Assembly: GCA_963707635.1 (NCBI GenBank)
Contig: OY970173.1
Span: 2,464,001-2,528,000, forward strand
Direction of reading: 5' to 3'
DNA length: 64,000 nucleotides
Source: Candidatus Latescibacterota bacterium
GTDB lineage: Bacteria; Krumholzibacteriota; Krumholzibacteriia; WVZY01; JAKEHA01
Positions 24,983 through 54,842 of the stretch are shown piece by piece. The notes below the pieces were generated by a model. The model saw only the letters and a program-made list of their open reading frames with translations, made no database searches and was not told the DNA's origin. A program made the position numbers and the translations under genes. How positions within the stretch are numbered: position 1 is the stretch's first letter; the number at the start of each line of letters is the position of its first letter.

Positions 24983-25752
24983 CGCGTCCACGTCACCGAG
25001 ACGCCATGGGAGAGACCCATCACCGCGTGGTGGGCCACCCCGGTCGCGACCTCCACACGATCCATCACGATGCGCGCCGCGACGCGCGAGGTATCGGTGC
25101 CGTCGTCGTAGCCTGCGATCAGCCCCAGCCGCGCGTCGGGACGCGCAACCACCGCCACGCCGGCGGCCACCACCCGTGACCCGTCGAAGCGCAGCGACCC
25201 CACGACGGTGGCCATCGCGCCCGCGCGTCCCAGAACCGCGACGGATACCGACGTCGACCGCACGAACGCGCCCGACATCGCTTCGACGTCGGCGACCAGG
25301 GAGACCGGGCCGAGGTCGGCGCGCGAGAACGCGCCGCCTAGCAGCGAGCGCTCGGAGAGGACGCCGCGCAGATCGACTTGCTCGACACCGGCCCGCATCC
25401 CACCCTGCCACACGCCGGCGTGGGCGTGCCCGGCTTCGACCACCACGCGCGTGTGGCCGCCGACCGGCGAATCGATCTGGGCCAGCTCGATCCGGAGCAT
25501 TGCTGGACCGAGCATTGCTGCGGATTGCACGCCGACGACGCGCAGACCGGCGATGCCGAACAGCTCCGCGTCGGCGACCTCGACGCTCCAGCGCCGGGGC
25601 TCGTTCCCTTCGACTGCACCCGGGTAGAGGGCCGTGCGCACCCCCACCGCGCGGTCGACGACACTCGGAAACGTCACCTGCGCGACGGCGGATCCCGCCA
25701 GAAACGCCGAGGCCACTGCGGCGAGCACTCCCCTACTGTCTCCGCGCCGCAC
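24979..25752 (-). CDS. PorV-like small beta-barrel protein (start uncertain)
   Basis: Signal peptide, ELFGIAGL and C-terminal AHHAVMGLSHGVSVTW, similar in style to the barrel at 58356. Confidence 0.55.
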   Translation of the reverse strand: MRRGDSRGVLAAVASAFLAGSAVAQVTFPSVVDRAVGVRTALYPGAVEGNEPRRWSVEVADAELFGIAGLRVVGVQSAAMLGPAMLRIELAQIDSPVGGHTRVVVEAGHAHAGVWQGGMRAGVEQVDLRGVLSERSLLGGAFSRADLGPVSLVADVEAMSGAFVRSTSVSVAVLGRAGAMATVVGSLRFDGSRVVAAGVAVVARPDARLGLIAGYDDGTDTSRVAARIVMDRVEVATGVAHHAVMGLSHGVSVTWTR

Positions 25753-29900: not shown

Positions 29901-30278
29901 TCACGCGGACGTGTCCGCCACTTTGAACGCTCCGATCGCGTCCTGCGTGGTCGGATAGGCTTCCAGAATCGAGTGGAACTCGAGCAGCTGGAAGACCTCG
30001 TGGACGTCGCCGGTCATTCCCGAGAGCTTGAGATCCCCGCCGTGGTTGCGGATGCGCTTGATCTCCCCGATGAAGATGCCCCAGCCCGCGGAGCTGATGT
30101 AGTTCACGCCGGAGAGGTCGACGACAATCTTGAAGAGACTCCGGTCGAGCAGCCCGTAGAGGGCGTTCTCCAGCTCGCCGGCGGTCGTGGTGTCGAGGTA
30201 TCCGCTTACCTTGAGGATCGATACCCCGGCGCTGTTGTTGCCCGAGATGACGCTCACAACGATTCCGTCTACAGACAT
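29901..30278 (-). CDS. STAS anti-anti-sigma factor (RsbV/SpoIIAA-like)
   Basis: SGYLDTTTA, VVDLSGVNYISSAGWG, GGDLKL, VFQLLEF. Confidence 0.92.
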   Translation of the reverse strand: MSVDGIVVSVISGNNSAGVSILKVSGYLDTTTAGELENALYGLLDRSLFKIVVDLSGVNYISSAGWGIFIGEIKRIRNHGGDLKLSGMTGDVHEVFQLLEFHSILEAYPTTQDAIGAFKVADTSA

Positions 30279-30324
30279 CGCACCCTTCCTCATCCGGTTG
30301 TATACCCCGCCGGGGCCGCCGCGG

Positions 30325-30726
30325 CTAGTGCCGGCGACCCGACGGGCCTCCCTGCGGACTCGCGTCGCCTGCCACCGCGAAGTCGCGAATTGCGTCCTCG
30401 GTGCGCTCGAACGGCTTCAGAATATTACCGAACTCGAGCAGGTCGAACACCTCTCGCACCTCGGGCGACATGGCCGCGAGTTTGATGTCACCGCCGTTGC
30501 GCCTGATGCGCTTGATCTCGCTGATGAAGATACCCCAGCCCGCCGAGCTGATGTACGTCACCGCGCCCAGGTTCACGACGATCCGGTAGCAGCTCTCGTC
30601 GACGATCCGGGCCAATGTCTCCTCCAGGCCGGACGCATTGGTGGTCTCGATGGTGCCCCGGAGGGTCAGCACGGAAACCGGGTTCGTCGAGCCGGTACGC
30701 TCTTCAGTAATGACCAGTTTTTCCAT
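30325..30726 (-). CDS. STAS anti-anti-sigma factor (RsbV/SpoIIAA-like)
   Basis: RGTIETTNA, VVNLGAVTYISSAGWG, GGDIKL, VFDLLEF. Confidence 0.92.
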   Translation of the reverse strand: MEKLVITEERTGSTNPVSVLTLRGTIETTNASGLEETLARIVDESCYRIVVNLGAVTYISSAGWGIFISEIKRIRRNGGDIKLAAMSPEVREVFDLLEFGNILKPFERTEDAIRDFAVAGDASPQGGPSGRRH

Positions 30727-30761: not shown

Positions 30762-31880
30762 CTAGTCCAATAGGGCCTTCAATAGAAAATGTATGCCCTG
30801 CCTGTCGTTACCCGACAACTTGAGGTTCTTCTCGGCCTTCCTGAACCCCGGGTTGCGAACCAGAGCGTGCCGGAACGCTTCATGCGCCTTGTCGATGAAG
30901 AGTTTGCATTTTGCGGCATAGAGCACCCCCAGGTCGTTCTGTATGTCCGCATAACCGGGGTTCGATTCAAGCGCGACCTTGAGCCGTTCGATCAGGGCGT
31001 CGATTTCCTGCTCGGTGAGCTCGTCCGCGCGGAACTTGAGCACCAGGTATATCTCCAGCGACAGGTCCGTCCCGGCCGCCGTGTCCAGTTCCTGGCGAAT
31101 CTTGGCCAGGCGTTCGTGCACCACGTCGTATTGCTCGCTCTCGGTGGCACGCACCGCCTCGCGAAAGTCCTCGGTGTCCAGCTGGGGCTTGAGCTGCAGG
31201 TTGAGCTGCAGGACCCGGCTGAGCCGGGGCCGCAGGTCGCGCGAGAGCTCGTAATCCTGCTTGAGGACGACGTTCAGCGTGAGCGCGAGCGCGATGTTCA
31301 GCAGCGCCGACTGATAGTAACGGTTCAGCTCGAGCGCCCGTTCGAACTCGGCCACGGCCTCGCGGCAACGCTCGAGCCGCAGGTAGGCCGTGCCCAGGTC
31401 ATTATGTAGGTCGGCGTAGTCCGGCGCCAGCTCGATTCCTTTCTGAAACGATCGCAAGGCCTTGTCGTGGTCGCCCAGCGCCAGCAGGCAGTTGCCCAGG
31501 ATCGAATAGCCGCTCGCGTCCTCTAGCCCGAGCTTGATCGAGCGAATCACCTCCGCCATCGCCTCGCGGTAGAGCTTCTGGCGGAACAGCGCCTCGCCGA
31601 GCTTGAGGTGGGCGCGGCCGTCGACGTCCTTCTTCAGACGATCGCGCAGGTCGAGCAGGGACATGAGCCGGGACTTGTACTCGTCGTGCACGCGCCGCAC
31701 CAGCGGGCGCAGCGATTCCGGCGTGAGCGAGGGGTCGTAGGCGACCGCGTGGCGCGAGAGCATCGTGCCCTCGTGGAACAGGGACGTCACCACCGTCCGC
31801 TGCGACGCCACCAGGCTCGACTGGACGTAGTACTTCGTCCCGCTCGAAAGAATCTCGCTACGGTGATCGTAGCCTTCCAT
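30762..31880 (-). CDS. TPR-repeat protein with uncharacterised N-terminal domain
   Basis: PDYADLHNDLG, PGYADIQNDLG, ALELN; RBS GAGAGGT before MEGYDH. Confidence 0.85.
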   Translation of the reverse strand: MEGYDHRSEILSSGTKYYVQSSLVASQRTVVTSLFHEGTMLSRHAVAYDPSLTPESLRPLVRRVHDEYKSRLMSLLDLRDRLKKDVDGRAHLKLGEALFRQKLYREAMAEVIRSIKLGLEDASGYSILGNCLLALGDHDKALRSFQKGIELAPDYADLHNDLGTAYLRLERCREAVAEFERALELNRYYQSALLNIALALTLNVVLKQDYELSRDLRPRLSRVLQLNLQLKPQLDTEDFREAVRATESEQYDVVHERLAKIRQELDTAAGTDLSLEIYLVLKFRADELTEQEIDALIERLKVALESNPGYADIQNDLGVLYAAKCKLFIDKAHEAFRHALVRNPGFRKAEKNLKLSGNDRQGIHFLLKALLD

Positions 31881-31907
31881 CGTCGCTACCTCTCTCATCG
31901 CGGTTCC

Positions 31908-31959: not shown

Positions 31960-32232
31960 TCACGCCACGTCGTCCGGGGTCAGCAGCGTGATCGCGATTC
32001 GAATCAGCTCGTCGCGTGACACCTCGCGCCCGCGCTCGGCCAGCCGGGCCCGCACCGCGTCGATGTGCTTGAGCACGGCGGGTGTGAGCCGCACTACCAC
32101 CTCGACTTCCTTGGCGTCGGGTGAGAGCGGCGAGCGGCCGCGAATCAGCTTCGACACCGTGTCGGAGGCGGCTGCCTCCTTCGCGTCCTCGAACGGGTCG
32201 CGCCCCATCGATCGCTTGCGTCGTTCAGGCAC
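31960..32232 (-). CDS. Small ParA-partner protein, putative ribbon-helix-helix
   Basis: Overlaps the parA stop; basic N-terminus RRKRSMGRDPF; C-terminal VVVRLTPAVLKHID...VSRDELIRIAI. Confidence 0.65.
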   Translation of the reverse strand: MPERRKRSMGRDPFEDAKEAAASDTVSKLIRGRSPLSPDAKEVEVVVRLTPAVLKHIDAVRARLAERGREVSRDELIRIAITLLTPDDVA

Positions 32233-32962
32233 GGGACAACACTTCCTCCGTCAACTGGTAGTAGTCGAACGCCCCGCGCGACATGGGCGAATACTCGAAA
32301 ATGGTCTGGTTAAAGCTCGGTGCCTCGCGCAGCGACGTATTCACCCGGATCACGGTCTTGAAGACGAGATCCTTGAACCGGTCGCGGAGCGTGTCCAGCA
32401 CGTCGATCGACAGTCGGGTGCGCCCGTCGTAGAACGTGGGCAGGATGCCGAGGATCGAGGTCTGGCGCGTCGAATTGTCGTTGATCTCGTCGATGATCTG
32501 CATGGTCTGGCGCGCGCCCGCCTGCGCCAGGTAGTCCATGCTCACCGGGATGATCACCTGGTCGGCGTACACGATCGCGTTGATATTGATGAGATTCACC
32601 GTCGGCGAGCAGTCGCAGATCACGACGTCGCATCCGCGCAGGTTGCGAAGCGCCATGTCGAGACGCCGCTCGCGGCTGGTGCGCGACGCCAGCACCATCT
32701 CGATCTCGGCCAGGTCGCGCCCGCCGGAATCGATGACGAACAGGTTCTGCCGGGCCTCGATCACGTCGACCTCGCCGTACTGGAGCAGGTCGCACAGCGT
32801 GCGCTGCCCCTTCAGGTCGAACGCGATGGCCACGTTGCGCTGTGGGTCGCAGTCGACCACCAGCACCTTCATGCCGCACAGGGCCAGCCCATGGGCGAGG
32901 TTGATGGCGGTGGTCGTCTTCCCGGTTCCGCCCTTGGACGTGATGATGGCGATCTTCCTCAT
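32225..32962 (-). CDS. ParA/Soj-family ATPase (orphan)
   Basis: Deviant Walker A KGGTGKTTT, DCDPQ, ICDCSP, IRVNTSLREAPS. Confidence 0.93.
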   Translation of the reverse strand: MRKIAIITSKGGTGKTTTAINLAHGLALCGMKVLVVDCDPQRNVAIAFDLKGQRTLCDLLQYGEVDVIEARQNLFVIDSGGRDLAEIEMVLASRTSRERRLDMALRNLRGCDVVICDCSPTVNLININAIVYADQVIIPVSMDYLAQAGARQTMQIIDEINDNSTRQTSILGILPTFYDGRTRLSIDVLDTLRDRFKDLVFKTVIRVNTSLREAPSFNQTIFEYSPMSRGAFDYYQLTEEVLSRA

Positions 32963-35900
32963 GCCGCGTCGTCGTCCTCGTCGCCGTCGTCGGCTTGCTC
33001 CTGCTCTGAACCGCCGCGATCGCGCAGCTGCTTGCCGTACTTCTCCCACCCGAGCGCGCGGAGCTTGTGGTCGCGGTCCACGTTTCGGTCTGTCACGGCC
33101 GAGTCGATGTCGAGATCGCCGGGCGTCGCCTCGTCGCCGCCGGCGTCGGCGAACTTGCCGCGGCCGAAGACCGGGGGCTCGTGGGGGGCCTCCGGCGGCG
33201 GACTCCCGTCGCGTGGCGTGCGGATGCTCGGGGCGCTATCCGCCGGTTTCCGGGTCGGCCGGACGGCCGGCGCGTCGGCTGGCCGGCCCGGCAGGGTCGC
33301 CGCACCCGGTCGCTCGCCCAGCACGTCGTCCAGCCCGTCCGCGTGCGTCTCGGGAGCTGCCGGGGCCACCGGCCTGGGCGGCCTGGGCGGCGGGCTGGCG
33401 GCAGGTTCCCCGGGACGCTGCTCGCGCACCGCCGCCACCGCCTCCGCGCGGGTGGCGAAGGCCGAAATGAAGGTCCGAAATTCGAGGCACGCGAACACGT
33501 CGGCCAGGTCGGTCCCCATGCCCGCCAGCGCCACCGCGCCGGTGGCCTCGAACGCGCGCGCGAACTGCCCCCACCCGCTGCTCGAGATGTACTCGACGCG
33601 CGTCAGGTCGAACACGATCGCGCGCGGAGCGCGCGCGAGCTCGCGCGAAAGCTCGTCGGACAAGAGCGACACCGCGGTGGTCTCCACCACGCCCGCGAGC
33701 GTGGCCACGCGCACTCCCTCGTCGCCGTCGCTCCATTCGAGGTCCATCCCCGGCGTGCTCGCGAACGAACGCCCGCGGGCCGTCTCCTCGGCGGCGGCCG
33801 CCGCCGGGGGCTCGTCCGCGATGGGCGCCGCCACGCGCCGGAAATCGTCGATCGCGTCGGCGAACATGTCGAAGGACGCGAGCACGATGTTGAACCCGAG
33901 CATGGTGAACACGTAGTACACGTCGGGGTCCATGCCGAAGAGTTTGATGTCCCCGCCCGCGCGGCGCACCTCGCGCAGGCGCTCGGTGAACACGCCCCAG
34001 CCGCCGCTCGACACGTACTCCACGAACGTCATGTCGACGACGACCCGGTTGCGCCCGCCCGCGAGCACCTGGTCCAGCGCGGCCCGGAGCCGCTCGGCGC
34101 TCACCGTGTCGATGATGCCCTTGAGCTGGAGCACCGCGATCTCTCCGCGTTCGCCGACGGTGGTGGCTTCGATGCGCAGGCTCTGCCATTCCATCGACGC
34201 CCCCGCCGGGGTCCCGCCCGTGTCGATGCCGTGCGACGACGCCATCGTATCGGCGCCCAGGTCGCGCCGGACCGGAGGCGCGCTGACGCGCCGTTGCTCG
34301 GGCGGGAGTGCCAGGTACGCGCGCGCTTCCGCGAGGCCGGGAAACGCACGCAGCACGTCGGCGAACCCGAGCAGCTCGTACACGTCGAACACCTCGGTGG
34401 TCATCCCGCACAGCACGATGTCGCCGCCGTGGTCGCGGAGCCCGCGCACTTCGCCGACGAACAGCCCCCACCCGCCGCTCGACACGTAGGATGTCTCGCC
34501 GAGGTCGACGACGATGCGCAGTGCGCCGGCCACGATCAGGTCATGCAGCTTGCGCTCGAGCGCGGACGAAGACGACGAATCCAGGTGCCCGGCCAGCCGC
34601 ATCTCTGTGATGCCGTCGGACGACGAAACCGCGATGCCCACGCCCTCGACCCGCTCGGTGATCTCGGCCGGGAGCGGCGCGCCGTCCGGCGCGGACGCGG
34701 GGATCGCCGGGGGCGCGACCCCCGGGATCTCGCGCAGGAGGTCGTCGACCAGGTCGCGGCGCGGCGCGGGTATCGGCTCCGCGCCCGGCACCTCGGGCGC
34801 CTCACGCCGCAGGCGGTTGCGGCGCAGGTAGTCGAGGCGGAGGTCTTTGGTATTCAAATTGAGCCGCTTGAGCTCCTCGTACACCATGCGCTCGGAAATG
34901 TGCTGCGACGGGTCACGGTCGCGGTTGTACTCCTCGGTGATGCGCTTGGCACCGAAATCGGGGTTGGCGGCGATGGTGCGGATGATCGCCTTGCGCGCCT
35001 CCAGGCTCACGCGCTTCAAGCTGACGTCGTCGCGCAGGATGTCGTTGCGCAGGCCCCGCTCGCCCATGGTTTCCAGCCGCTTCTTGTACCGGTAGAAGGT
35101 CGCCGGGGAGACCCGCATCTGCTGGCAGGCATCCTTCACACTCATGCCCTGCAACTCGACCATGTCGATCAGCTTCTTGCGAATGTCGAAGAGCACGTCG
35201 TCCGCCGTCATCTTCTCCTTCACCGCCACGACGGTGATGTCGTCGCTCTGCGGGTAATCCAGCGTGAAGCGCTTGATGTCCAGATCCAGCTTGGCGATGA
35301 ATTCCTCGGGCGAGAGGTAGCCGTGGGTCTTCACCATGTCCAGCAGGCGCTCTTCGCCGTACTGCTCGCGGCGCTCGTTCATGGCCTCGGTCACGCCGTC
35401 GGTGTAGATGACGAGCATGTCGTCCTTCTTGAGGCGGACCTTCTCGACGCTGATCGAGCGGCGGAACAGCGATTCGTCCGGCAGGCTGATGCCCACCGGG
35501 AAGCCGCGCGGGTTCAGGAAGAACGTCTCCCGGGTCTCGTGGCGGTAGAGAATCATCGGGTTGTGGCCCGCGCTCGCGTAGCTGATCACGCGGTTCTTGG
35601 AATCCAGAATGACGTAGAACATCGTGACGAACATGCCCTTCTTCATGTCGTCGGTCACGAAGGCGTTCATCTTCGACATCACGTCGCTGGCGTTGCGGTT
35701 GCCGCGGGCCTCCATGCGCAGCGCGGTCCGGATCATGGTCATGACCAGCGAACCCGGCACGCCCTTGCCGGACACGTCGGCGACCACCACCCCGATGGTG
35801 TCGTCGTCGACCTGCACGAAGTCGTAGTAGTCCCCGCCCACCTCGGCCGCGGCCTGGTAGAGCGGCGCGATGTCGTAGCCGCTGATCTGCGGGCGGCGCC

Positions 35901-37215
35901 GCGGGAGCAACGACTGCTGGATCTGCTTCGCGACCTCGATCTCCTTCTGCATCTTCTCCTGCTCGAGAATCGACGTCTGCGCCTTGCGGAACTTCTCGGT
36001 GATCTCGTTGAACACACCGGCGATGGCGCCGATTTCGGCCGGACCCCGGATGTCGAGCTTGCCCTCCAGGTTGCCGTCGCCGATCGCGCGCACGCCGTCG
36101 GTGAGCACCTGGATCGGCCGCACGAAGACCTGCACCAGCCCGATGACGAGCACGAGGCCGACTGCGAAAGTCGCCAGCAGGAGCAGCGACGTCTGCAGCC
36201 GCGTGTCCCGGATGGCGGCGCTCACGGCGTCCTCGTACACGCCGAGGTGGAGCCGCCCGATTTCGAACGAGCGTCCAGCCTCCCCCTCCACCGTCACCGC
36301 CACCGCGACGTCGCGGACGTCCTGATCGCCCTGGCGGTGGCGCGACCACGAGATCGCGCCGTCTTCGAGCAGCAGCTTGCCGGCCGGGGCCTGGTAGGGC
36401 TGGAACACTTCGTCGATCTGTCCGGACGCGCGAATATTGCCGGTCGCGTCAACCAGCCGCACGTAGGCCACCTCGTTCGAGCGCGCGACGAGCTTCGAAA
36501 GCTCCGCGGTCAAGTTCGTCTGCTCGATCGAGAACTCGCTCGGGTCGGTCAGCACGGGGAGGCTTCGACTCCCGAGGCTCTCCGCCAGCCGCCGTTTCTC
36601 GACCCACTGGTTCGCGCGCTGGGCCCCGATGTCGCGCGTCTGCCGGAGGAACACGAATCCCCACAGCACCGCCATCAGCAGGAACAGGCCCCCGCTGGCG
36701 CGCACCATGAACTTGAAGCGGAGCGTGCCGCGCAGCGGCATCTTCTCGGGGAGCACCGCGGCCGAGAACGCCGCCTGGCTGCGCTTGGTCAGGATGAGCT
36801 CGTTGCCCGCGTCGGTGGTGCGGTACTCGACCCCGTCCATCAGGCGGTTGATGAGGAATACGCCGAGCCCGCCCTTGCGCCCGGTCTCGACGTACTGGTC
36901 GAGGTCGGGGTCCTTGACGCTCGAGAAGTCGAAGTTCCGGCCCCGGTCCTTCAGGTGGATGCGCACGCGGCCGGAATCGATCTCGGCCACAACGGTGATA
37001 TCGCCGCCGGCCGTCTCGTACGCGTGCTTGATGATGTTGGTGCAGGCCTCGTCGACGGCGAGCTTGGTGTTCGAGACCTCGCGCGGGCTGAAGCCCGCGT
37101 CCTCGCACACCTCCACCACGAAGTCGCGAACCCGCCCCAGCTGCCCTTCCTCCGCCGCGACCGTGAGGTCGCGGACGTTGGGCTTCCGCTCCAGCATCGC
37201 CGCCGCGCGCGCCAT
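32959..37215 (-). CDS. Multidomain partner-switching protein: RsbW-like kinase, 2TM with periplasmic sensor, HAMP, SpoIIE/PP2C, tandem HTH, three STAS
   Basis: LAVDEACTNIIKHAY, DRG and GGLG (kinase); TMs near 36650-36710 and 36130-36200; VGGDYYD, ADVSGKG, YTDGVTEA and DDIT (PP2C); SVKDACQQMRVSPATFYRY (HTH); three Y(V/I)SSxGWG STAS motifs. Confidence 0.9.
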   Translation of the reverse strand: MARAAAMLERKPNVRDLTVAAEEGQLGRVRDFVVEVCEDAGFSPREVSNTKLAVDEACTNIIKHAYETAGGDITVVAEIDSGRVRIHLKDRGRNFDFSSVKDPDLDQYVETGRKGGLGVFLINRLMDGVEYRTTDAGNELILTKRSQAAFSAAVLPEKMPLRGTLRFKFMVRASGGLFLLMAVLWGFVFLRQTRDIGAQRANQWVEKRRLAESLGSRSLPVLTDPSEFSIEQTNLTAELSKLVARSNEVAYVRLVDATGNIRASGQIDEVFQPYQAPAGKLLLEDGAISWSRHRQGDQDVRDVAVAVTVEGEAGRSFEIGRLHLGVYEDAVSAAIRDTRLQTSLLLLATFAVGLVLVIGLVQVFVRPIQVLTDGVRAIGDGNLEGKLDIRGPAEIGAIAGVFNEITEKFRKAQTSILEQEKMQKEIEVAKQIQQSLLPRRRPQISGYDIAPLYQAAAEVGGDYYDFVQVDDDTIGVVVADVSGKGVPGSLVMTMIRTALRMEARGNRNASDVMSKMNAFVTDDMKKGMFVTMFYVILDSKNRVISYASAGHNPMILYRHETRETFFLNPRGFPVGISLPDESLFRRSISVEKVRLKKDDMLVIYTDGVTEAMNERREQYGEERLLDMVKTHGYLSPEEFIAKLDLDIKRFTLDYPQSDDITVVAVKEKMTADDVLFDIRKKLIDMVELQGMSVKDACQQMRVSPATFYRYKKRLETMGERGLRNDILRDDVSLKRVSLEARKAIIRTIAANPDFGAKRITEEYNRDRDPSQHISERMVYEELKRLNLNTKDLRLDYLRRNRLRREAPEVPGAEPIPAPRRDLVDDLLREIPGVAPPAIPASAPDGAPLPAEITERVEGVGIAVSSSDGITEMRLAGHLDSSSSSALERKLHDLIVAGALRIVVDLGETSYVSSGGWGLFVGEVRGLRDHGGDIVLCGMTTEVFDVYELLGFADVLRAFPGLAEARAYLALPPEQRRVSAPPVRRDLGADTMASSHGIDTGGTPAGASMEWQSLRIEATTVGERGEIAVLQLKGIIDTVSAERLRAALDQVLAGGRNRVVVDMTFVEYVSSGGWGVFTERLREVRRAGGDIKLFGMDPDVYYVFTMLGFNIVLASFDMFADAIDDFRRVAAPIADEPPAAAAAEETARGRSFASTPGMDLEWSDGDEGVRVATLAGVVETTAVSLLSDELSRELARAPRAIVFDLTRVEYISSSGWGQFARAFEATGAVALAGMGTDLADVFACLEFRTFISAFATRAEAVAAVREQRPGEPAASPPPRPPRPVAPAAPETHADGLDDVLGERPGAATLPGRPADAPAVRPTRKPADSAPSIRTPRDGSPPPEAPHEPPVFGRGKFADAGGDEATPGDLDIDSAVTDRNVDRDHKLRALGWEKYGKQLRDRGGSEQEQADDGDEDDDAA

Positions 37216-37217
37216 GG

Positions 37218-39101
37218 CTAGCGCTGCCCCTCGACCTTGCGCACGCGCTCGCGCGCCTCCTCGATGGACCGCTGGACGCTTTCGTTGGTGGGATCGATCT
37301 CGAGGATCTTCTCCCATTCCGCGATCGCCTGCGCGTACTGGTCCCTGGAGAAGAACTGCATGCCGGCCAGGTAGAGCTCGCGCACCCGCGACTTCTCGGC
37401 GTCGGTGAGCGGCGTGGTGCGCCGCTTGGTCAACGCCATGAGTTTCTTGGCGTCGGCGTGGTCGGGCTGCAGAGTCAGGAGCTCGCGCAGGTCGGTCATG
37501 GCGCCCTGGTAGTTGCCAGCGTTGTACTTGGTGAGCGCGTCGTTATACAGCGTGACGATGCGGAGCTTGCGCTGCGAGGCCGCGTAGTCCTGGCTAACCG
37601 ACTCGATCTGCTTGCGGATGCGCGCGATCGACGTGCGGGCATTCGCGTTGTCCGGTTCGTATTGCTGCACGTTGTTCCACTCCGCGATCGCCTCGGTCAG
37701 GCGGCCGTCGCGTTCTAGCTGCTGCGCGCGTTCGGAGTGCGCACGGATCCGCTCGTTGATCTTCGCATTGGTTTGATCCAGGTAGTCGTGGGCGCCCACG
37801 TTGAGCGAATCGATCGCGAGGATCGCGTGCCACTCGGTGCGCGCGCCGATCATGTCGCCCTCGTTGAACAGGTCGAGCCCGCGGGCGAAGCGCGTGCGAA
37901 TCACGGCCTGGTTCCCCAGGTCCCGCACCGCCGCCGCCTGCTGGGCCAGCACCTGCTCGCGCGCCGCGTCGCGGGCCGCGGCCGCCTCCGCGTCGTCGGG
38001 CACGAATTCGAGGACGATCAGCCACTGGTTGAGGGCTCCGGCCCAGTCGTCGCTCGCCTCGAGCGCGCGCGCCTTCTCGCGGTGGGCGTTGATTCGCGTC
38101 TCGAAGGTGCGCTGGATGAGCAGCCGCTCGTCCTCGGCGCGCTGCGCCTCGATCGCCTCGCGCTTCTCGTCGAGGGTCTGGCCGAAGCGGCCGGTGAAGG
38201 TCACGGCCTGGTTCGAACCGCTCTCGTCACGCGAGTAGAATGCATAATCCACGCCGTAGTTGAACGCCCCCACGCCGAGCCCGAACGTGGGCGTGTCGTC
38301 GTCGAATCCGACCCGCAGCGCGACCAGCCGCGAGAACACGTACTCGGCGCCGGCGTGGAAGCGCCCGTCGGCACGCTCCGGGAGATCGTACTGCAGCATG
38401 AGCCGGAGCGCGGACCCGTTGTCGAACCTGCGCGTGTACCCGGCGCCGGCCAGGATGGTTCGATCAACCGTGTCGTCCTCGAGGTCGAGCTTGTACTGGG
38501 CGCCCACGATGTCCTGCAGGTTCACTCCCAGGGAAAGCGATCGCGCCCCGTCGGGTATGTAGCGGAAGCCGATGTCGACGCCGGGCGCCGTGCTGCTGAA
38601 CGGATCCACCTGCTGGCGGCTGATCTTGAAGGTCGCCCCCGCGGCCAGATTCCCGAACATCCACCCGAAATGGCGCTCGGCCGCGTAGGAGATGAGGAAC
38701 TGGCTCTCGCTGGCGTTACCTTCGCCGAGCGGGCGGCTGAACTCGTCGTACAGATCAAAGGTGGTGCCGACGTTCATGTAGCCCACGCCGAATGCGCCCG
38801 CCGAGAGGGTCGGGTAGACGAAGCCGAAGTAGGTATAGCCCGCCCCGGTGAACTCCCCGTAGAGCGGCATGTACATCGCCATGAACTGCATCGACTGCAC
38901 GTTGCGCAACGACGCCGGGTTCCAGTACACCGAGCTGGCGTCGTCGGCGAGGCTCACGAATGCCCCGCCGAGACCGATCCCACGCGACCCGGCGCCCAGC
39001 TTGAACGTGCTCGCGGTGCCGCCGTCCTGCGCGAAGGTGGGCGTCGTCAGCGCGACGAGCGCGGCGAGCAGCGCAACGATCACAACGCTCTGGTTTCTCA
39101 C
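37218..39101 (-). CDS. PorV-like beta-barrel fused to a C-terminal TPR/coiled region
   Basis: GTG start overlapping the upstream stop; signal peptide; GAGSRGIGLGGAFVSLADDASSVYWNPASL; FHAGAEY...LRVG...DYAF; TPRs (AIAEWEKILEIDPTN). Confidence 0.82.
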   Translation of the reverse strand: MRNQSVVIVALLAALVALTTPTFAQDGGTASTFKLGAGSRGIGLGGAFVSLADDASSVYWNPASLRNVQSMQFMAMYMPLYGEFTGAGYTYFGFVYPTLSAGAFGVGYMNVGTTFDLYDEFSRPLGEGNASESQFLISYAAERHFGWMFGNLAAGATFKISRQQVDPFSSTAPGVDIGFRYIPDGARSLSLGVNLQDIVGAQYKLDLEDDTVDRTILAGAGYTRRFDNGSALRLMLQYDLPERADGRFHAGAEYVFSRLVALRVGFDDDTPTFGLGVGAFNYGVDYAFYSRDESGSNQAVTFTGRFGQTLDEKREAIEAQRAEDERLLIQRTFETRINAHREKARALEASDDWAGALNQWLIVLEFVPDDAEAAAARDAAREQVLAQQAAAVRDLGNQAVIRTRFARGLDLFNEGDMIGARTEWHAILAIDSLNVGAHDYLDQTNAKINERIRAHSERAQQLERDGRLTEAIAEWNNVQQYEPDNANARTSIARIRKQIESVSQDYAASQRKLRIVTLYNDALTKYNAGNYQGAMTDLRELLTLQPDHADAKKLMALTKRRTTPLTDAEKSRVRELYLAGMQFFSRDQYAQAIAEWEKILEIDPTNESVQRSIEEARERVRKVEGQR

Positions 39102-42100
39102 TTCGCCACCGCGATTCGGAACTTGGCCGACTTCGAGCCCGCGTTCAGCACGCACACGTAGACGCCGTTGCGCACGACTTCGCCCTGACCGTTGCGGCCG
39201 TCCCAGGTCGTCTCCTGCGGCCCGGCCTGGGCGCGCGCGTCGCCCGAGGGAATCGTCTCTTCGTACACCAGGTCCCCGGTCAGCGCATAGATCTTGAGCG
39301 AGACGTCCGCCGGAGCGTCGAGGAAGTACGCGATTCGCGTCGCCTGCGATCCGGCGCGGAACGGATTCGGATAATTGTGCGTGTACTCCTGGAAGTTCCC
39401 GCTCAACACCACCAGCGATTGCGAGGTGACCTGCCCGTCGAGCGGCTGTCCCTGCGCATCGGTCACCCCGAGCGGGAGCGTCGAGGCCGGGTCTCGAACC
39501 ACCAGGCCACCCGATCGCACTCCCACACGAATCTCCGTCTCGCGCGGCTGCGCGTCCAGATCCAGCGCCACCACCGCGTTGACCGACGCGTTGGGCGCGA
39601 TCGTGCGATCCGCGCCCCCACCCAGGAGCGAGACCACGATCGGGTTGGTGGCGGGACTGGTGACCACGTAGGGCTGCGCACCGCCGAGGTCGATCTGGAG
39701 CCGCGCGAGCGTCGCCCCCACCGAAGCGGCCGAGAGCGGCTGGCCGTTCTTGCCGATCACGGTGATCGCAATGGTGTCGATCTGGGCATCGTTCACGCTG
39801 GGGTCGCTCGCGTTGTACGCGATCTCGACGCCCAGGAGGGTCACGTCGGCCGCGCCCGCGGGCACCACGCCGGTATTGATCCCGAGACTCTGCGACACGT
39901 TGCGCACCGCCACCGCGGCGCCTTCGGTCACCATGGCGATATTCGCGGTCCCGTTCGCCACCTGGGCGGGAAGACCGCTGTTTTCGTCGGCGGGGACGGC
40001 GGAGATCGTCACCGCGATCTGGTCGGGCCCGGACGGCTGCAGCGCGGCGTTGACATCCCACGCCACCGGTGTGCCCACCACGAACGGCTTCGCGACGGTT
40101 TCTCCACCCGCGAGCGTGTACCCGGGCGGGAGGCCGATCGAGAGCTGCCCGCCGGCCGCCACGCCCGCCGCGCCGGCTGCATTGGTCACGTTCGCCGTGA
40201 CCGTGAACGGAACCCCCACGCCGACCGCGTTGTCCGTGGCCTCCGGTGGCGCGGTCACACTCGCCGCCACCGAGAGCGAGGCGCGCGGCACCGTCGTGAC
40301 GGCGACCGTGTCCGCGACGGAAGGCACCGGGTTCTGCGAGTTCTCGTCGATACCCGCGAAGGTCACGACCGCGTCCGCCGCGCTCGCCGGCAGGCCGGGC
40401 GCAATCACGCTATACGTCACCGACAACACGCCGCCAGTTCCGTCGCCAAGGTCCCGCACCGGCCCCCCACTCGTCACGATATACCCCGCGGGCAGTGCCA
40501 GCGTGGCGGTAACGTTGTCCGTCGTCGAGGTCGCGGTCACTGCCGCCCGCAACGAGAAGGTCTGGCCCACGCTCACCGTGTCGTCCACCGCACCCGCCGG
40601 ACTGGTCGCCGACAGGCTCGGAGCCGAGAGCGCGCCGCCCGTCGCCACCGTGATCGACACCTGGTCGTCCGGCTGCGACGAGAATGCCGGCGCCGCCAGA
40701 TTGACGTCGTCAGGCGTGGTCGTGAGCGTGCATGTGAAAGCGACGGCCGCCTGCGGCGCCGCCGGCGCGGTCACCGTCCAGTCGATCGCAACGCCCGCGC
40801 TAAACGCCTGCACGGGCGATTCCAGCACCGAGAACCCGGACGGGCTCGTCAGCTTCACGTCAGCCGCACCGGCGAGGCTCGCCTGACCCGCGTTCGTCAC
40901 CAGGCCCGTCACCGTGAAGGTCTGATTCGGGCTCACCACCCCGCCTACGGCGGAGCTGGTCAGCGACAACACCAGGTCGGCGCGTCGCTGCGTCACCACC
41001 AGGTAGGTGTTGTCGACCGGGGGCTGCGGAATCACCGGCTGCCCGGAGTTGTGCGACACCACCCCGGATAGGATCGAGGAAGTGAACGTCTCGAGCGCCG
41101 CGGGCGCCGCCGGTGCGGTCACGCGGAACACGAAGGTGTGGCTCTCGTCCACGGCGATCGACTGGCGGCGCAGGCTCGCGGGCGCGACGCTCGACGCGCC
41201 GTCCTTGGCCAGCGACACCCGCACACTGTCCACGTCCTCGCCGCTGTTCTGGACGGTCACGTGGATCTCGTACGCGAAGCCGGTATTGACCGTGTCGCGA
41301 TTGGCGGTCGCGTGGTTGAAGGTCCCGAAGCCGGTAGTCGCGAGAATCGCGAGGCCGGCGACCTCCTGCACGCGCACGGTGGTGGCCCCGGCGTCGGAGA
41401 GTGCGATCGTCGGGTCGTTGCGGTCGTTGCCGCGCGCCCCCAGTGCGATGTCGACCAGCCCGGTGTCGCTCCCGGTCACGATCACGCTGTATACGAGCGA
41501 GTCCACCGCGCCTCCCGGCAGGCGCCAGGCCGGCGCGCCCGAGCCGAACGCCGTCGGCGGCTGAACCACGTAGTCGATCTTCGTGGCTCCCGCGATGGAG
41601 AAGGCGACGTCGGCCGCGACCGGCGGCGTCAGGTCCGCGCTCGCCTGTCCCGTATTCCGGAGCGCCACGACGATGTTCCACGGGTTCGACTGTCCCTGGG
41701 TCACGGACGCCTGCGACGGCCGCACGCTGGTGATGTCGAGCACCGCCGGCGACTGGATCGCGACGGGTGCAGTCGCATCGAGGGGAGGATTGTTCAGCGC
41801 CACGAGGTTGCTCTGCGCCGAGTTCTCGTCAACGGCGGATACGAGCGTGGTCGTGAAGGTCTCCAGCGTCGACGACGTCGCCGACGCCGTCACCGGCCAG
41901 GCGTACGCCACGGTCTGCCCGGCGGCGACCTCCGCGATCGGAGACACCGGCTGTATCGTGCTGAGCCCATCCGTCGCCATGCCGACCACGACGTCGCGCG
42001 CGTCCGCCTGACCGGTGTTCTGCACCTGCAGGATCACGTCGAAGGCCTGGCTTTCGTTCACGGCGACCGGATTCGGGGCCGCGACGGTCGTGGTGGTGAT

Positions 42101-45100
42101 GCGCAGCTGCGCCAGCGTCTCCACCACGATCTGACCGTAACCCGTCGACGCAACCGTCGTCGCCGAGCCCGCCGTCTGCGAATTCGCCTCGATCCAGGGC
42201 ACGGTCGCGTCGATACGACGCGTGCCGGCCGTAGTCCCGGTGGTGTCGACTATAAAGAGCAGGCTGTCGACCGACCCGCCCTCGAGCACGGTACCTCCGC
42301 CCAGCAGCGCGGACGAGGCCACGAACGCCCATCCCGCCGGCGGGCCCGCAAAGGCGATCCCGGCGCTCGCCGCGGCGACATCGACGTCCGCGCCCCCGGT
42401 GTTCGCGAGCACGACCCGCACCGACCAGTCGGCTACCTGGCCCGCGGTCACGTCCGGTCGCGACGTGTGCGTCGCGACCACCGCCACCGCCGCCGGCGAC
42501 TGCACAACGACGCTCCCGCGCCCGCCGTCGAAGGTATTGTCGTTCACGATCGTGAGATGGTTCAGGTCGCGCCCTTCGACGCGCCCGCTGATCACGATGT
42601 TGCCGGTCCTCGTCCCGGTCTGGGTCACGAGAAACTCGATGGTGCCGGTCTCGAGGGAGTCCAGAATGTCGCTGGCGCCGCCTCTCATCACGGGCGGGCT
42701 GACCGTGTACGTGAGATCCGGCTGCGCGTCCGGCGCGATGAACGTGAGGAACGTCTCCGCCGGCGAAAGGTCGAGGTCGATGGGAGCGGCGCCGGTATTC
42801 ACGACCGTCATGGTCGCGGTCCAGTCCGCGGTCTGTCCGGCGGTGACGCTCGGCTGCGACACGACGATCTGCTGGATCGACAGCTGCGGCGGCACCTGAA
42901 CGGTGACACCGTTGGGCACGACTTCCGACTCGGTCATGTCGATCTCATTGGCGTTGTAGCCGAAGTCCACGTTGAAGGCGTAGGGGCCGAGCGGAATCCC
43001 CGATTCAACGACCTTGGGCTCGAACAGGAGTCTGACCGTCTCGCCGCCGCGAATCGAATCGGGGCTGCCGAGAGCCAGGAACGCGCTGAATTGGTTGGCC
43101 GCAAAATGGACGCGCGTCAGGCCGTGGTCGAGCACCGCCGTTGCCGCGTTGGGGTTCGCGTTCGCCACGTCGACCTCGAAGGGGACGACCGAGCCGCTCG
43201 TGACCCCGGACGGGTCTATGTCGACGACGGTCAGGTTCGGCGACGCCTGCACACGGATCGAGCCCGCGCCCGGCGACGACAGCACGCGGGTGCTGTTCGT
43301 CTCCACTGCCGACACGGAAATGTTGAGCGCCTTCACGCCGTAACTCGAAAACGTCCCGGTGTTGTTGGCGTGCGCGATCAATGTGCCCGAGCTGCCCCCC
43401 GCGAGAATGAGTCCACCCTCCTCCAGATCCGTCGGCTTTACGAACACCGTGGGGCCGCCATCGTCCTGGATGCCGATCGTGAACCCGGCTGGCAGCGTGA
43501 GGCGCGCGTCCGATTGTCCGGAGTTGTGCACCGCGACGGTCACGTCCCAACCGAACGCCGTGCCCGCGGTCACGGTGCTCTGCGACGGCGTGACCGAGTC
43601 GACGACGATGTCCGCCGGGGTCTGGAGCGTGATCGAGCCCGTCCCGCCGCTGCCCGTGTCGTCGATGACGATGGTCCCGGTATTGATCTCGCTGCCGGTC
43701 ACGGTCCCGCCGATGGTCGCCACGCCGGCGCCGCCCCCCGTCGTCGTGACCAGGAAGCGCAGCGTGTCGGTCTCTCCGCCGGTGAGCGTCGCGCCCGACG
43801 GCATGGTGGCGGGGTTGACCGCCCAGCCCGTCGTGCCCGGGAACGTGAGGAACGAGTTCGCCTGAAGCAGCGACACACCGACCGCCGCACCGCCGGTGTT
43901 GCGCACCGCCATCTTCACCGCGTACGACTTCGCCGTCTGTCCCACCGTCGCCGTGGTCTGCGCGGTGGTGATGCTCTCGATGCTCAGCGCACCCGGAAGC
44001 TGGAGGGCAAAGCTGCCGGTGCCGCCATCGCTGGTGTCGTCGGTGAGAATGTCGCTCGAATTGAGATCGGTGCCGCGCACGAACCCGTTGACGATGATCG
44101 TCCCGACGGTATTCCCGGCCCCCTGCATACTAAAGACGAGCGAGTCGATGGCGCCGCCGTTGAGTATGGTGTTGCCCGCGTCCTCGAGTGCGGTCGGCGA
44201 CACGATCGTGTACTCCGAAGTGACGGGGGCGCCCGTGCCCAGCACGTTCAGCCCGAGTTTCGTCACCGCCGGGTCGAGGTCGAGGTCGACCGCCGCCCCA
44301 CCCGTGTTCTGCACCACCATCGTCACCGTCCAGGGCACGGCCTGCCCCTGCGTCACCGTCGCGCGGCTCGATCGCACGCCCACGATACTCAAGCTGGGCG
44401 CGTTCTCAACCGTGATCGCGCCCCCAATCGGGATGGTGCGCGTGCCGGTGACGCCGTTTTGCGTCCAGTGCAACTCGAGCACCGCGTCGGCCTGACCTCC
44501 CGTCAGAATCCCAGCCCCCACCACGGCGCCCGTGAAGAGCAGCGTAACCTGCGCGTCGGCGGCCACGTCCACCGGGCTCGTCTGGGTCAGCCCCACGTTG
44601 AACTGGTTCGAACCGAAGCGCAGGCGCGACGTCGTGCGGTCGAGGGTCAGCGTCGCCCCGCTGGGCGTCACCGGGTTGCTCACGGTCACCGCGAAGGCGA
44701 CGGACGTCCCCTTCGACACGCTCCCCGGCGCCAGCGACACGTAGGCGGCATCCGGCGCCTGCTGGACGGTCACGCTGCCCGTGTCGAAATCGTTTCGCGC
44801 CACCCCCGAGTTGAGCTCGGTGCCGTCGACGTCGATAGTGATTGTTTTCGACCCGAACGAGCTGTATGCGCCCGCGGTGGTGAGCGGGATCAGGAGCTGA
44901 TCGGTTTCGCCCCCGGAGAGCAGCGTGCCGCCACCGACGAGCGAGGCCGGCACAATGTACGCGGGCGGGGTAGTCGCATTCTGGAAGACGACGCTGACCG
45001 CCGCCCCGAGATCCAGGTCGACATCCGACTGGCCGGTGTTGGTGAGTGTCGCGACGACCGCCCACGGCACACTGGTCCCGCTCGTGATCGTCGTCCGCGA

Positions 45101-48100
45101 CGGCGTGATACCCGACACGGCGATCAAGCCCTGCGACTGCACGAGCACGCTTCCCAGCCCCGAAGACGAGACGGACAGCGCGCGCGCACTGTTGCTCTCC
45201 ACACCCGCGGTGGCCACGTCGACCATGGTCGGCCCGGTCACGCTGCCCGACTGCGTCACGTCGAACACCATCGTGTCCACTTCGCCTCCGGAGAGCACCG
45301 TCCCGCCGCCCACGAGCGCGGGCCGCACAGTGGATACCCAGCCGGCCGCCGGCGAGAACACGAGCCGCGACGTGGGTCCGGCGAGCGTGAGCACGACGTC
45401 GCTCCCGCCGGTGTTACGCACCGCGGCGCGCACCTGGAACGTCTTGCTCATCCCCTGCGTCACCTTCGGCTGCGACGGAATCACGGCGTTGAACGTGACC
45501 GCCGCCGGAGACTGGACCAGCAGGTTGCCCTTGCCGCCGAGGTTGGTGTCGGCGAACAGCGGCTGGCTGGTGTTGACGTCCTCGACCTCGAGCGCGCCCT
45601 CGATGGTCATGTTCCCGACCGTGGTCGCGTTGCCGGTGTTGTCCGAGACGTTGAACACCACCGTGTCGACGTCGCTGCCGGTGAGCAGCGTCCCTCCGGA
45701 AAAGGCCGCCGGGGTGGAGACCACGAATTGATTGGTACGGTCGACGCCGGCGTGGATGAAGCGCAGCGTCGCGGCCGTGAAGGTGACGTTCGCCCCGCCG
45801 TTGTTGGCCACCACCATGCGCACCTTGATGGGCTTGCCCTGGTCCTGGGTGAACAGCGGCTGCGACGGGATCATGGAGAGGATGGCGATGTTCGGCGCGT
45901 CCTGGACCAGCACGTTGTCCGCGACTGTGATCAGCTGGCCGAAGGGGAGGCCGTTTTCGAAGCCATTCAACTGGACCTGCGGGACATATGACGCGCTCGC
46001 GATGGATCCGCTGACGGACGTGCCCAGGAATTGCAGCGTGGTGGTACCGGGCGGCAGCGACGTCGGACCCGACGGGTTGAGCGCCGCGGTGAAGGCGCCG
46101 GCGGCGAACCGGATCGTGGTCGTCGCCGGGGAGAGGTTCACGGTGGCAAGGCCGGTGTTCACGAGCTGGACGGTGAACGCGACCGTCGCGGTCTTGCTCA
46201 CCTGGTCCGGGTCCAGCGCGTCGCCGGCCGCCGACGCCACACTCGCCGGCGTCACGACCGACACCGGGCTGCCGGTGAGCAATACGGGCGGCCAGGTGGA
46301 TGGCGCGCCGTTCTCGGTGCCGTGGGCGTCGAGCGTCACCGGATACGAACCGGGCGTGAACGTCCCCGGCACCGCCCGCGGCCGGAACGTCATGGTCTGC
46401 ATCGCGTTCCCGCCGGCGATCGCGTAGTTCTGCGTGGGCGACGCGCTGAACGTGCGCACGCCATCGGTGAAGGTAAGGCGCGTCGTCGTGGAATCCAGGA
46501 ACGCGAGCCCGCCGCCGGTGTTCCGTATCGTCGCCTGGAATGCGTAGATCTTGCCGCGAGAGGCGACCACCGGCGTCAACGTGGACGGCTCATAGGCCAG
46601 GATGGCCGCGGCCACGACTTCAACGGTCGCGCGCGGGTAAGGCGCCACCGCCAGGTCGACCACGGACTGTCCCCCCACGGTGCCGGTCGCAGCAGCATCG
46701 ATGCTGTAGAAACCCAGCGTCGCTCCGGTCTGTACGGTCACCGGGACGTTGAACACGCCGGATGCGCCCGGGCCGAGCGCGAGCCCCAGCTCGGGAGCAT
46801 TGCCGACGATGAACAGACCGGCGGGAATGAAGGTCAAGTCGATGTCGTTGATGGTCGTGCTCTGGGCCCCGTCGTTCTTGACCGTGACGGCGATGCTCGT
46901 CCCATAGCCCCGGCTCACCTGCCCCGACGCCGGCACGATGCCAGTGATTTCGATGTTGGTGACGAGCAGCGAGAGCGCGGGGAGGCTGCAGGCCACGTTG
47001 ACGGGCGCGGTATTCGCGTCCGCGCCGATGAGCGTCGCCGTCGGCGCGTACTGGGCGGTCAGGAAGGCCGGGTCGATGGCGGCCGACGCGAAGGCGAGGA
47101 TCGCGTTGCCGCTGCCCGGCACCAGCTGCTGCGCGGCCAGATTGGCCGAGTAGCTGTGGGTCCCGTCCGTGAACGAAAACGTGGTCGCGGTCGTCAGGTT
47201 GACCGACGTCGGCGACGAGTTATTGACCACCACGCTGAACGCGACCGAACTCCCCGGCACCACGATGGCCGGTGTGGGCGGGGTGTTGCACACCAGCACG
47301 GGCGGCGGCGCGAACGTGATATCGATGGTCCCGCTCGCCGTCCCGGTGGCGCTGGTCATCGTCACCGTCGACACGCCCACCGTGGTGGACGAACGCAGGT
47401 CGAACGTGATGGTGCCATTCGCCGCGATCGTCTTCGGGCTTCCACCCACGATGAAGCCGCCGAGGTTGGCCGACACGTTCACCGACAGCCCCGCCGTTAC
47501 CTGGTTGGCAAACGCGTCTCGAATGACGCCGCTGGTGATGGTCGTGGTCGAGGTGCCGTTGGCCGTGATCGTGGTGCGGGTCGCGGTCGCCGTGATTGCC
47601 CCGGCGGGTGCGGCGGGAACGACCGTCACCGCTTCACCCAGCCCCGTCACCGAGGGGTTGCCGACGGTGGCGGCGCGCACCTGGTAGGTCTGCACCTGGG
47701 TCGCGGTGACGGTCGTGACCGCGACGCCGTTGGACAGAGTCAGCGGGTTGGTGCCGAACACCAGACCGACGCCGGGATCCCCGGAGAGTGCGACCTGCGT
47801 CGCGTCGTCGTCGACGGGGTTGTTGTTGATGTCGTATGCCGTGATGGTGGCGTTCTTCGAAACCCCCGCCGTCGTCGACGACGCATTCATGACGACGGTG
47901 TAGTAGGCGATTCCGCCCGCGACCGTGGTGACGTTGAAGGTCACGCGCTCGCGTGCGGCCGGGGTGCCGTCCAGAATCGTCGCGGCCACCGTGCTAGGCC
48001 CCGCGGTGGTGGACGTGTGCAGACGCGCGACCGCGCGGCCGTTGGCCGCCGACGCGGCGATACCATCCGTCGAGTCGCCCACCGAATCGCGCAGGAACCC

Positions 48101-53740: not shown

Positions 53741-53756
53741 TGCAACTCCCATGCCC
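53741..53756 (-). promoter_or_regulatory. sigma54 promoter candidate for the giant-protein locus
   Basis: Minus strand GGGCAT-GGGAG-TTGCA has the GG-N10-GC spacing, about 75 nt upstream of the likely ATG. Confidence 0.55.
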
Positions 53757-54022
53757 CACCAGCGGTTCCCCATTTCGGGGCATGACTACCCCGGGCTGGA
53801 GTCGGACTCAATCGGCGGGAACTCCAGCACCGACGCGAGCCGGGATTCCCGGGATGGTAGCAGCCGGAGGCGGAATAGGCAATCCCCGCAAGGGATTAGC
53901 CGGGACGACGGGGAACTGGCGGGAAGGGTGCCAGGGGGCGACCCGACACGGGTCGCTTGACCCAGGCGGCCGGGGCCAGGCCAACGGTTCGTGGCGGGGT
54001 GGACGGGCGGTTTGCCCCGTCG

Positions 54023-54831: not shown

Positions 54832-54842
54832 CGCCTTCGCTT

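Follow-up and report, generated by a model that had tools for sequence, protein, structure and literature searches.

The window analysed here is a 64,000-nucleotide stretch from a Candidatus Latescibacterota bacterium (assembly GCA_963707635.1, contig OY970173.1, positions 2,464,001 to 2,528,000). On its reverse strand, one gene encodes a fusion protein of 1,418 amino acids (aa) that joins an RsbW-type kinase, a PP2C phosphatase and three STAS domains, and it stands beside genes for a giant surface protein, a PorV-type beta-barrel and a ParA-like ATPase. In what follows, G000 is the genome of the window; G208, G209, G210 and G211 are reference labels of genomes in other phyla; and f1 to f9 are families within the window's phylum.

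The fusion protein and its helix-turn-helix module

The fusion gene (37215..32959, reverse strand) is uninterrupted, with no internal stops. Its product runs from the kinase through a transmembrane helix (TM1), a single Cache domain, a second transmembrane helix (TM2), HAMP, PP2C, a bipartite helix-turn-helix (HTH) and three STAS domains to a tail. The features are as follows.

32959..37215, (-), fusion gene, a single open reading frame of 1,418 aa (P0001)
36778..37182, (-), RsbW/SpoIIAB-type GHKL kinase domain, aa 12-146, by Pfam, with N-box E56/N60, D90-x-G92 and GGLG 115-118
36649..36705, (-), TM1, aa 171-189, hydropathy 1.81, an unbroken helix in the structure model
36190..36648, (-), periplasmic single Cache/PDC-fold domain, aa 190-342, by structure model and Foldseek
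36133..36189, (-), TM2, aa 343-361, hydropathy 2.74
35974..36129, (-), HAMP, aa 363-414, then a coiled linker, by Pfam
35212..35880, (-), PP2C/SpoIIE phosphatase domain, aa 446-668, by Pfam, with D462/D465, D480, D606 and D658/D659
34801..35202, (-), two-lobed HTH, aa 672-805, like the N-terminus of IS481/IS630/IS3 transposases, by NCBIfam profile and structure model
34312..34638, (-), fused STAS 1, candidate phospho-Ser913, by Pfam and alignments
33841..34191, (-), fused STAS 2, candidate phospho-Ser1070, by Pfam and alignments
33430..33738, (-), fused STAS 3, the most divergent of the fused copies, candidate phospho-Ser1212, by homologue alignment
33025..33090, (-), conserved tail motif W1390-x-x-Y1393-x-x-K/R/Q-L1397 after a low-complexity linker, in 112/114 homologues, candidate ParA dock

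Pfam matched HATPase_c_2 (aa 20-144, E = 6e-29), HAMP (aa 363-407), SpoIIE (aa 470-666, E = 7e-48; 163.6 against a cut-off of 25), HTH_28/29/23 (aa 678-724), and STAS and STAS_2 over three stretches apiece. The kinase domain can be aligned to RsbW (6m36, E = 4e-14) and has the N-box, G1 and G2 motifs of an RsbW/SpoIIAB-type GHKL kinase intact; across 114 full-length homologues, conservation is 95-99% at the N-box, the G1 Asp/Gly and GGLG. The metal-binding aspartates expected of a SpoIIE-like PPM/PP2C phosphatase are invariant in all 114, as are S913, S1070 and S1212, and 137 of the 223 columns of the PP2C domain are at least 98% conserved. The protein is predicted to sit in the inner membrane of this uncultured, Krumholzibacteria-type bacterium, and because the kinase precedes TM1 and HAMP-PP2C follows TM2, both enzymes are predicted to be cytoplasmic. 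Between the helices, the Cache domain of ~153 aa was modeled with high confidence (predicted local distance difference test score, pLDDT, 92). Its best Foldseek matches were to WalK (E = 3e-7 to 4e-5), and matches to sCache_3_2 were obtained in homologues.

We rejected an assembly artefact as the source of this architecture. Among the 120 best homologues listed, 114 exceed 1,300 aa (some with the source labels Krumholzibacteria or Latescibacterota), and the three-STAS form was intact in 12 of the 13 loci fetched from f1, f2, f5, f8 and f9, the 13th being frameshifted. Conservation of the catalytic motifs and the three acceptor serines in the full-length homologues likewise argues that the fusion is genuine. 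A preliminary description, made from the letters of the window, had raised the possibility of an artefact while reading the gene as a kinase, a phosphatase and three candidate substrates in one protein. Its domain list is borne out by Pfam and hydropathy, and its coordinates for the kinase, PP2C and the STAS domains agree with ours within ~80 bases. The N-box, GGLG, PP2C aspartates and tail peptide are present as claimed, and the cytoplasmic placement of both enzymes is supported by the predicted topology. The two transmembrane helices also stand, but the domain between them was put at ~170 aa, which is too long. What the description overlooked was the transposase likeness of the HTH and an operon encoding cargo of the type IX secretion system (T9SS).

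The HTH resembles the N-terminal part of a transposase. Residues 679-793 match positions 2-109 of the 284 in the NCBIfam profile for IS481 transposases (NF033577, E = 1e-13), with weaker matches to IS630, IS3 and ISNCY profiles. The IS481 match stops there: no DDE catalytic domain follows, and the STAS domains come next. In the structure model (pLDDT 83), two helical lobes are joined by a flexible linker. TnsB, Pax5/Pax6, SETMAR and Tc3 were among the top Foldseek rows for this model, all at E >0.1 and none at E <=0.001, so the fold search is consistent with a transposase likeness and does not prove it. A sequence comparison with the PDB gave one match, Lin0861 (E = 9e-5), which was uninformative. 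The two-lobed N-terminal HTH is thus shared with IS481/IS630/IS3 transposases, but the fusion has no DDE domain and its HTH is single copy, at a fixed position after PP2C across phyla, which rules out a live or recently inserted insertion sequence. Within the module, it is the second lobe that is retained most widely, and in several phyla the partner STAS carries a fused copy of that lobe. Two stand-alone proteins of ~305 aa (P0258 and P0260) consist of two tandem copies of the two-lobed HTH.

The operon, its STAS proteins and their distribution

The fusion gene is flanked by the following genes.

39098..53662, (-), giant Ig-repeat surface protein with a FlgD-Ig/T9SS-type C-terminal domain, ~4,900 aa, by Pfam and profiles; in seven reading-frame pieces here
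37218..39101, (-), PorV/PorQ-family beta-barrel with a C-terminal TPR region, 627 aa, by NF033709 (91.8 bits, cut-off 90), TPR by Pfam
32225..32962, (-), Soj/ParA-like ATPase, 245 aa, by Pfam and Soj alignment; its start overlaps the fusion stop
31960..32232, (-), 90-aa protein, ribbon-helix-helix-like by eye, seen only in f1 and f2
30762..31895, (-), TPR protein, by Pfam; its homologue in the G208 phylum lies inside an exopolysaccharide cluster, after a Wzc-like gene
30325..30726, (-), free STAS A, a clade-specific paralogue, by Pfam and STAS tree
29901..30293, (-), free STAS B, slow-evolving and grouped with the single partner STAS of other phyla, by STAS tree and alignments

From the giant gene through that for the 90-aa protein after ParA, neighbouring genes touch or overlap one another, suggesting that they form a single operon. 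Within the giant gene, the frame shifts six times between ~48.6 and 51.3 kb; since the open frames of relatives are intact (4,540-5,918 aa), these changes are probably sequencing indels. The core of the fusion is preceded by a giant Ig-repeat gene with a FlgD-Ig/T9SS-type tail and by a PorV-TPR gene in 66 of 69 loci, a count of the loci with enough upstream DNA that omits six that were too short, one duplicate and the window itself. These neighbours bear the marks of T9SS: a barrel that scores as PorV/PorQ, a sorting-type C-terminal domain on the cargo, and SprA encoded in G000, where 97 frames fit a custom C-terminal-domain profile. The tail of the window's own cargo fits T9SS C-terminal regions only below cut-off, and a relative (L084) passes TIGR04183. 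The giant surface protein is probably secreted.

The tail of the fusion contains a candidate dock for ParA, in line with the possible interaction peptide of the preliminary description. The pattern [WFMI]-x-x-[YL]-x-x-[KRQL]-L occurs within the last 32 residues of 28 of the 29 proteins that are followed by ParA, the 29th having a near match, and in none of the 43 without ParA; one frameshifted, two truncated and two duplicate or paralogous loci were omitted. Because the pattern was defined after inspecting the tails, and because the loci represent just about three lineages with ParA and five without, we treat the association as a strong lead and not as a statistic. The ATPase itself aligns with Soj (1wcv, E = 1.5e-41) and has a deviant Walker A motif. 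In all 30 ParA rows, the second Arg of the Soj RNVRL stretch, a residue with a DNA-binding role, is replaced by S, A, Q or G. The 90-aa protein, which matched no Pfam or NCBIfam family, could be a second ParA partner.

The STAS proteins qualify as anti-sigma antagonists by profile (TIGR00377 above cut-off) and by a serine at the position of SpoIIAA S58. In free STAS B, this serine falls on the SpoIIAA position occupied by Ser in structure 1th8 and by Ala in 1tid, the latter being described as S58A (PMC8256260). The three fused STAS share the motif around this serine with free STAS B; compared with SpoIIAA, the preceding Asp is Ser and the following Leu is Trp. All five STAS domains of the operon read Y-[IV]-S-S-x-G-W-G, with Trp in place of the Leu/Met of other STAS, a hallmark of the family across phyla; this Trp may set kinase specificity. 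In a tree of 67 STAS domains, fused STAS 1, 2 and 3 and both free STAS each form a cluster of their own that spans families. The branches of free STAS B are short and lie, with moderate support, beside the lone partner STAS of other phyla; those of the fused copies are longer. On this tree, the fused STAS are old, derived paralogues and the free partner has been kept; free STAS genes stand next to the fusion in 13/13 loci of the window's clade.

Relatives of the fusion extend well beyond that clade. Among the 208 genomes of the window's phylum, by a tally of listed E-values, the segment from the end of PP2C through the HTH has strong matches in 83/87 other genomes of f1, f2, f5, f8 and f9, in 6/10 of f7 and in 1/7 of f4; f3 (91 genomes) and f6 (12) gave weak generic PP2C matches alone. 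Among the matches listed, the core of kinase, TM, sensor, TM, HAMP, PP2C and HTH, usually followed by a separate STAS gene, is found in f7 and in other phyla, in records labelled Eisenbacteria, Calditrichia/Calditrichota, KSB1, Zixibacteria, FCPU426, Omnitrophota and Ignavibacteria. With a profile built on the PP2C-HTH junction, the gene was recovered in 81/86 genomes of the G209 phylum (record label Calditrichia), 33/151 of the G208 phylum and 32/121 of the G211 phylum, with one copy per genome except for one genome with two matches. Of 79 cluster representatives with the N-terminal kinase, 75 have the HTH and 28 end in TPRs, while just 7 have fused STAS and just 2 have three. From these sequence comparisons, we conclude that the kinase-to-HTH core and a stand-alone STAS gene, a pair present in several phyla, make up the ancient unit, and that the three fused STAS came later.

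The family forms a natural variation series over several little-studied phyla, in which a constant core exchanges its tail (three STAS, TPR or none), some members have an HTH lobe on the partner STAS and others do not, and the presence of ParA and of a cyclase varies. The phylum of G209 includes cultured members; given these and the single copy in 81 of its 86 genomes, the family should be testable. Ten relatives of 1,360-2,253 aa (P0212, P0218, P0222, P0226, P0227, P0233, P0238, P0239, P0240 and P0265) have the second HTH lobe alone and TPR-array C-termini. One KSB1-labelled genome has a second copy of the core without the preceding adhesin operon (L190; G210:C35 1-4321); the gene upstream of that copy encodes 411 aa with a STAS match and an N-terminus that is TIR-like by eye.

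Promoters and candidate outputs

Two promoter motifs lie upstream of the giant gene, ~110 bases apart. They were counted in the first 19 of 30 loci returned, which are close relatives and include the window.

53741..53756, (-), sigma54 -24/-12 promoter site, in 19/19 loci (0.11 expected)
53854..53882, (-), sigma70-like -35/-10 site with a 17-bp spacer, upstream of the sigma54 site, in 10/19 loci by strict pattern (0.16 expected)

A further 12 loci held one strict sigma54 match. Among 20 more distant loci, the site was present in 6 (two of the four from the G211 phylum, the two f7 loci, and those from f9 and G044). G000 encodes RpoN along with 14 strong matches to its activators, and has 14 strict sigma54 sites in all. 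Other sites precede a PilT-like ATPase, a prepilin-like gene, two glycosyltransferases, a bactofilin and a GAF-GGDEF gene; the remainder precede a lipid A acyltransferase, an M49 peptidase, a HEAT-repeat protein or unannotated frames. The GAF-GGDEF gene (G000:C1 2060350-2061393) heads an exopolysaccharide cluster of sugar-nucleotide, Wzc and glycosyltransferase genes (L245, G000:C1 2051000-2061500), and the sigma54 site upstream of this gene is conserved in 25/25 loci (0.075 expected).

In another lineage, a cyclase gene stands with the switch itself. In the G208 phylum, the core is followed by ParA, STAS-HTH and then a GGEEF protein in 12/12 loci (4 confirmed by Pfam). In the two of these loci that were scanned in full, there follow Wza, a Wzc-like gene, the TPR homologue, a kinase, and a deacetylase or sugar transferase. 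One locus without adhesin and barrel (L169) nevertheless retains this cyclase/exopolysaccharide half.

Known systems, alternative readings and flanking genes

The idea of an all-in-one kinase, phosphatase and STAS protein is already known, because Rv1364c joins PAS, PP2C, kinase and STAS and because SypE has a kinase-sensor-phosphatase order; the fusion belongs to neither family. Rv1364c of Mycobacterium tuberculosis, described as a single chain that (de)phosphorylates its own STAS (PMC9138534, PMC7693655), contradicts the preliminary description, which knew of pairwise fusions only. It resembles the fusion in holding phosphatase, kinase and STAS substrate within one polypeptide (PMC9138534, PMC7693655, PMC12143880) but differs in its PAS-PP2C-kinase-STAS order, its one STAS and its link to SigF, and the excerpted sources describe no TM or HTH; the fusion, for its part, has a TM/Cache sensor and no PAS. 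SypE of Vibrio fischeri is described as controlling biofilm via SypA, downstream of transcription (PMC3610818). Like the fusion, it has an N-terminal serine kinase, a central sensor and a C-terminal phosphatase in one chain (PMC3610818) and its target is a STAS protein encoded alongside it, in a surface-attachment locus driven by sigma54/SypG (PMC10162802). Unlike the fusion, SypE has a central REC; the fusion has no REC match, senses through TM-Cache-TM-HAMP, adds the HTH, three STAS and the tail motif, and has a locus that encodes T9SS-type cargo. A 2015 abstract still gave the target of SypA as unknown.

SiaABCD of Pseudomonas aeruginosa likewise combines a membrane PP2C, an opposing kinase, a small phospho-switched partner and a diguanylate cyclase (PMC7278518), a cast that the operon form of the G208 lineage has together with a syp-like polysaccharide cluster. 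SiaABCD, however, consists of four separate proteins with Thr-68 as acceptor (PMC7278518), whereas the kinase of the fusion is fused and the window operon has no cyclase; the NCBIfam SiaA profile matches aa 340-665 at 68.4 bits, against an equivalog cut-off of 700. In CapK/CapS, too, an anti-sigma-type kinase governs a DNA-binding STAS-like protein (PMC13373217), but that system is soluble, activated by single-stranded DNA and regulates immune operons, and the excerpted source describes no PP2C or membrane sensor. Our literature search, which covered few subscription journals, returned no description of the fusion architecture or its operon. To our knowledge, partner switches acting without a sigma factor (SypE/SypA, SiaABCD) are few. 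Added here to the preliminary description are the IS481-like HTH, the operon context of T9SS cargo and PorV-TPR, the sigma54 site, the lineage cyclase and the link between tail and ParA.

Starting from the observed architecture, conserved catalytic and acceptor residues, gene order and promoter motifs, we see about an even chance that the fusion is a membrane-bound, SypE-like kinase/phosphatase sensor that sets the phosphorylation of a private STAS family and thereby likely controls surface attachment, probably without a SigB-type sigma factor. The outputs are likely the giant adhesin-like protein and, in some lineages, cyclic di-GMP (c-di-GMP) and exopolysaccharide. At rest, the N-terminal kinase would keep the STAS serines phosphorylated. 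The Cache domain would then receive a signal from the envelope, which might be the TPR region, in the periplasm, of the PorV-type barrel encoded in the same operon, and would activate PP2C through TM2-HAMP. Free STAS B, which is likely orthologous to that ancestral STAS partner, would in its dephosphorylated form bind an effector of surface attachment, for which a GAF-GGDEF cyclase is the best candidate, by analogy with SiaC-SiaD. The three tethered STAS, as derived local substrates, could serve as a buffer, a threshold or an autoinhibitory lid, and the transposase-like HTH and a tail-docked ParA might anchor the complex on DNA or at a set position within the cell.

The conserved catalytic residues and acceptor serines, the domain order equal to that of SypE, the 66/69 loci with PorV-TPR and giant genes, SprA in G000, the 19/19 sigma54 sites, the 12/12 GGEEF genes with the exopolysaccharide genes beyond them, the 25/25 sigma54 sites before the GAF-GGDEF gene and the lack of SigB/F/G matches above cut-off in G000 all speak for this reading. 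Several observations weigh against it. All functional links come from gene context in related, non-independent genomes, and three loci (L169, L173 and L190) have the core without adhesin and PorV genes. No sigma54 site was found in the 10 G209-phylum loci (two of which stop short of the gene start) or in the 8 lineage-G208 loci checked, and no GGDEF gene adjoins the switch in the window's clade. The GAF-GGDEF protein of G000 shares just 28-39% identity with the lineage-G208 cyclases; another GGDEF protein of G000 is about as close (40-41%, over shorter alignments), which leaves orthology unsupported. Lastly, the grouping of free STAS B with the ancestral partner has moderate support (82/86).

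The HTH might instead be the output itself. As a membrane-tethered transcription factor, the protein would bind DNA through its two lobes, gated by STAS phosphorylation much as CapK releases CapS, and would regulate the adhesin operon or a sigma54 regulon directly. We hold this as a tentative possibility. In its favor, the HTH is retained in 75 of the 79 kinase-bearing representatives, and the partner STAS of other phyla, with its copy of the second HTH lobe, is reminiscent of CapS as described (PMC13373217). However, beyond the two promoter motifs, we saw by eye no conserved operator or inverted repeat in the 19 aligned upstream regions, eleven inspected representatives keep essentially the second lobe alone, and the free STAS of the window's clade and of f7 have no HTH. 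A classical partner switch, in which the kinase acts as an anti-sigma factor, keeping at the membrane a sigma factor whose gene lies elsewhere until dephosphorylated tethered STAS release it, seems unlikely to us, even though RsbW is the closest solved relative of the kinase, Rv1364c is described as binding SigF in vitro (PMC7693655) and 18 sigma70-region-2 matches were counted in G000, including four that are group 1/2-like. Neither the operon nor the conserved neighbourhoods contain a sigma gene, 0/6 SigB/F/G matches in G000 reach the cut-off, and the kinase falls short of both RsbW equivalog cut-offs in NCBIfam (82.5 against 145 and 72.2 against 155 bits).

The preliminary description favored a self-contained switch, and in its strictest form this would be a closed toggle whose cis STAS are the sole relevant substrates and whose state is read by the HTH or tail of the same chain. 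That idea is very improbable in our judgment. The three cis serines are indeed invariant (114/114), and Rv1364c is described as auto(de)phosphorylating its STAS. Yet fused STAS are present in just 7 of the 79 representatives, 2 of them with three; the core pairs with one separate STAS gene in other phyla, and free STAS B groups with that partner (82/86); and free STAS genes stand beside the fusion in every locus of the clade, with free STAS B evolving more slowly than the fused copies.

A broader and rather unlikely proposal is that the locus belongs to an ancient, multi-phylum, trans-envelope form of T9SS signalling. A giant adhesin on the PorV-TPR barrel would signal through the periplasm to the kinase/phosphatase, with its domesticated transposase HTH and docked ParA, and so couple surface contact to DNA, cell position and c-di-GMP. 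Pax paired domains have a transposase origin, and domestication of the HTH would, if this proposal is true, be a bacterial parallel to them. Apart from that proposal, the fusion offers an example of a signalling enzyme with a transposase-like DNA-binding module as a fixed part, and its operon hints at how bacteria other than Bacteroidota may regulate T9SS adhesins.

Beyond the operon, three consecutive CBM48/AMPK glycogen-binding genes (window 54023-57074, reverse strand) lie directly upstream, and the nearest of them is also upstream of the operon in many relatives. Downstream of the STAS genes, on the same strand, are a membrane protein with GATase1-like/VWA look-alikes (27607-29793) and a lamin-tail-domain protein with a FlgD-Ig tail (25733-27430). 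These two follow the STAS genes in the window's phylum and in the G211 phylum, while the G209 phylum has DUF4159 and DUF4175 instead.

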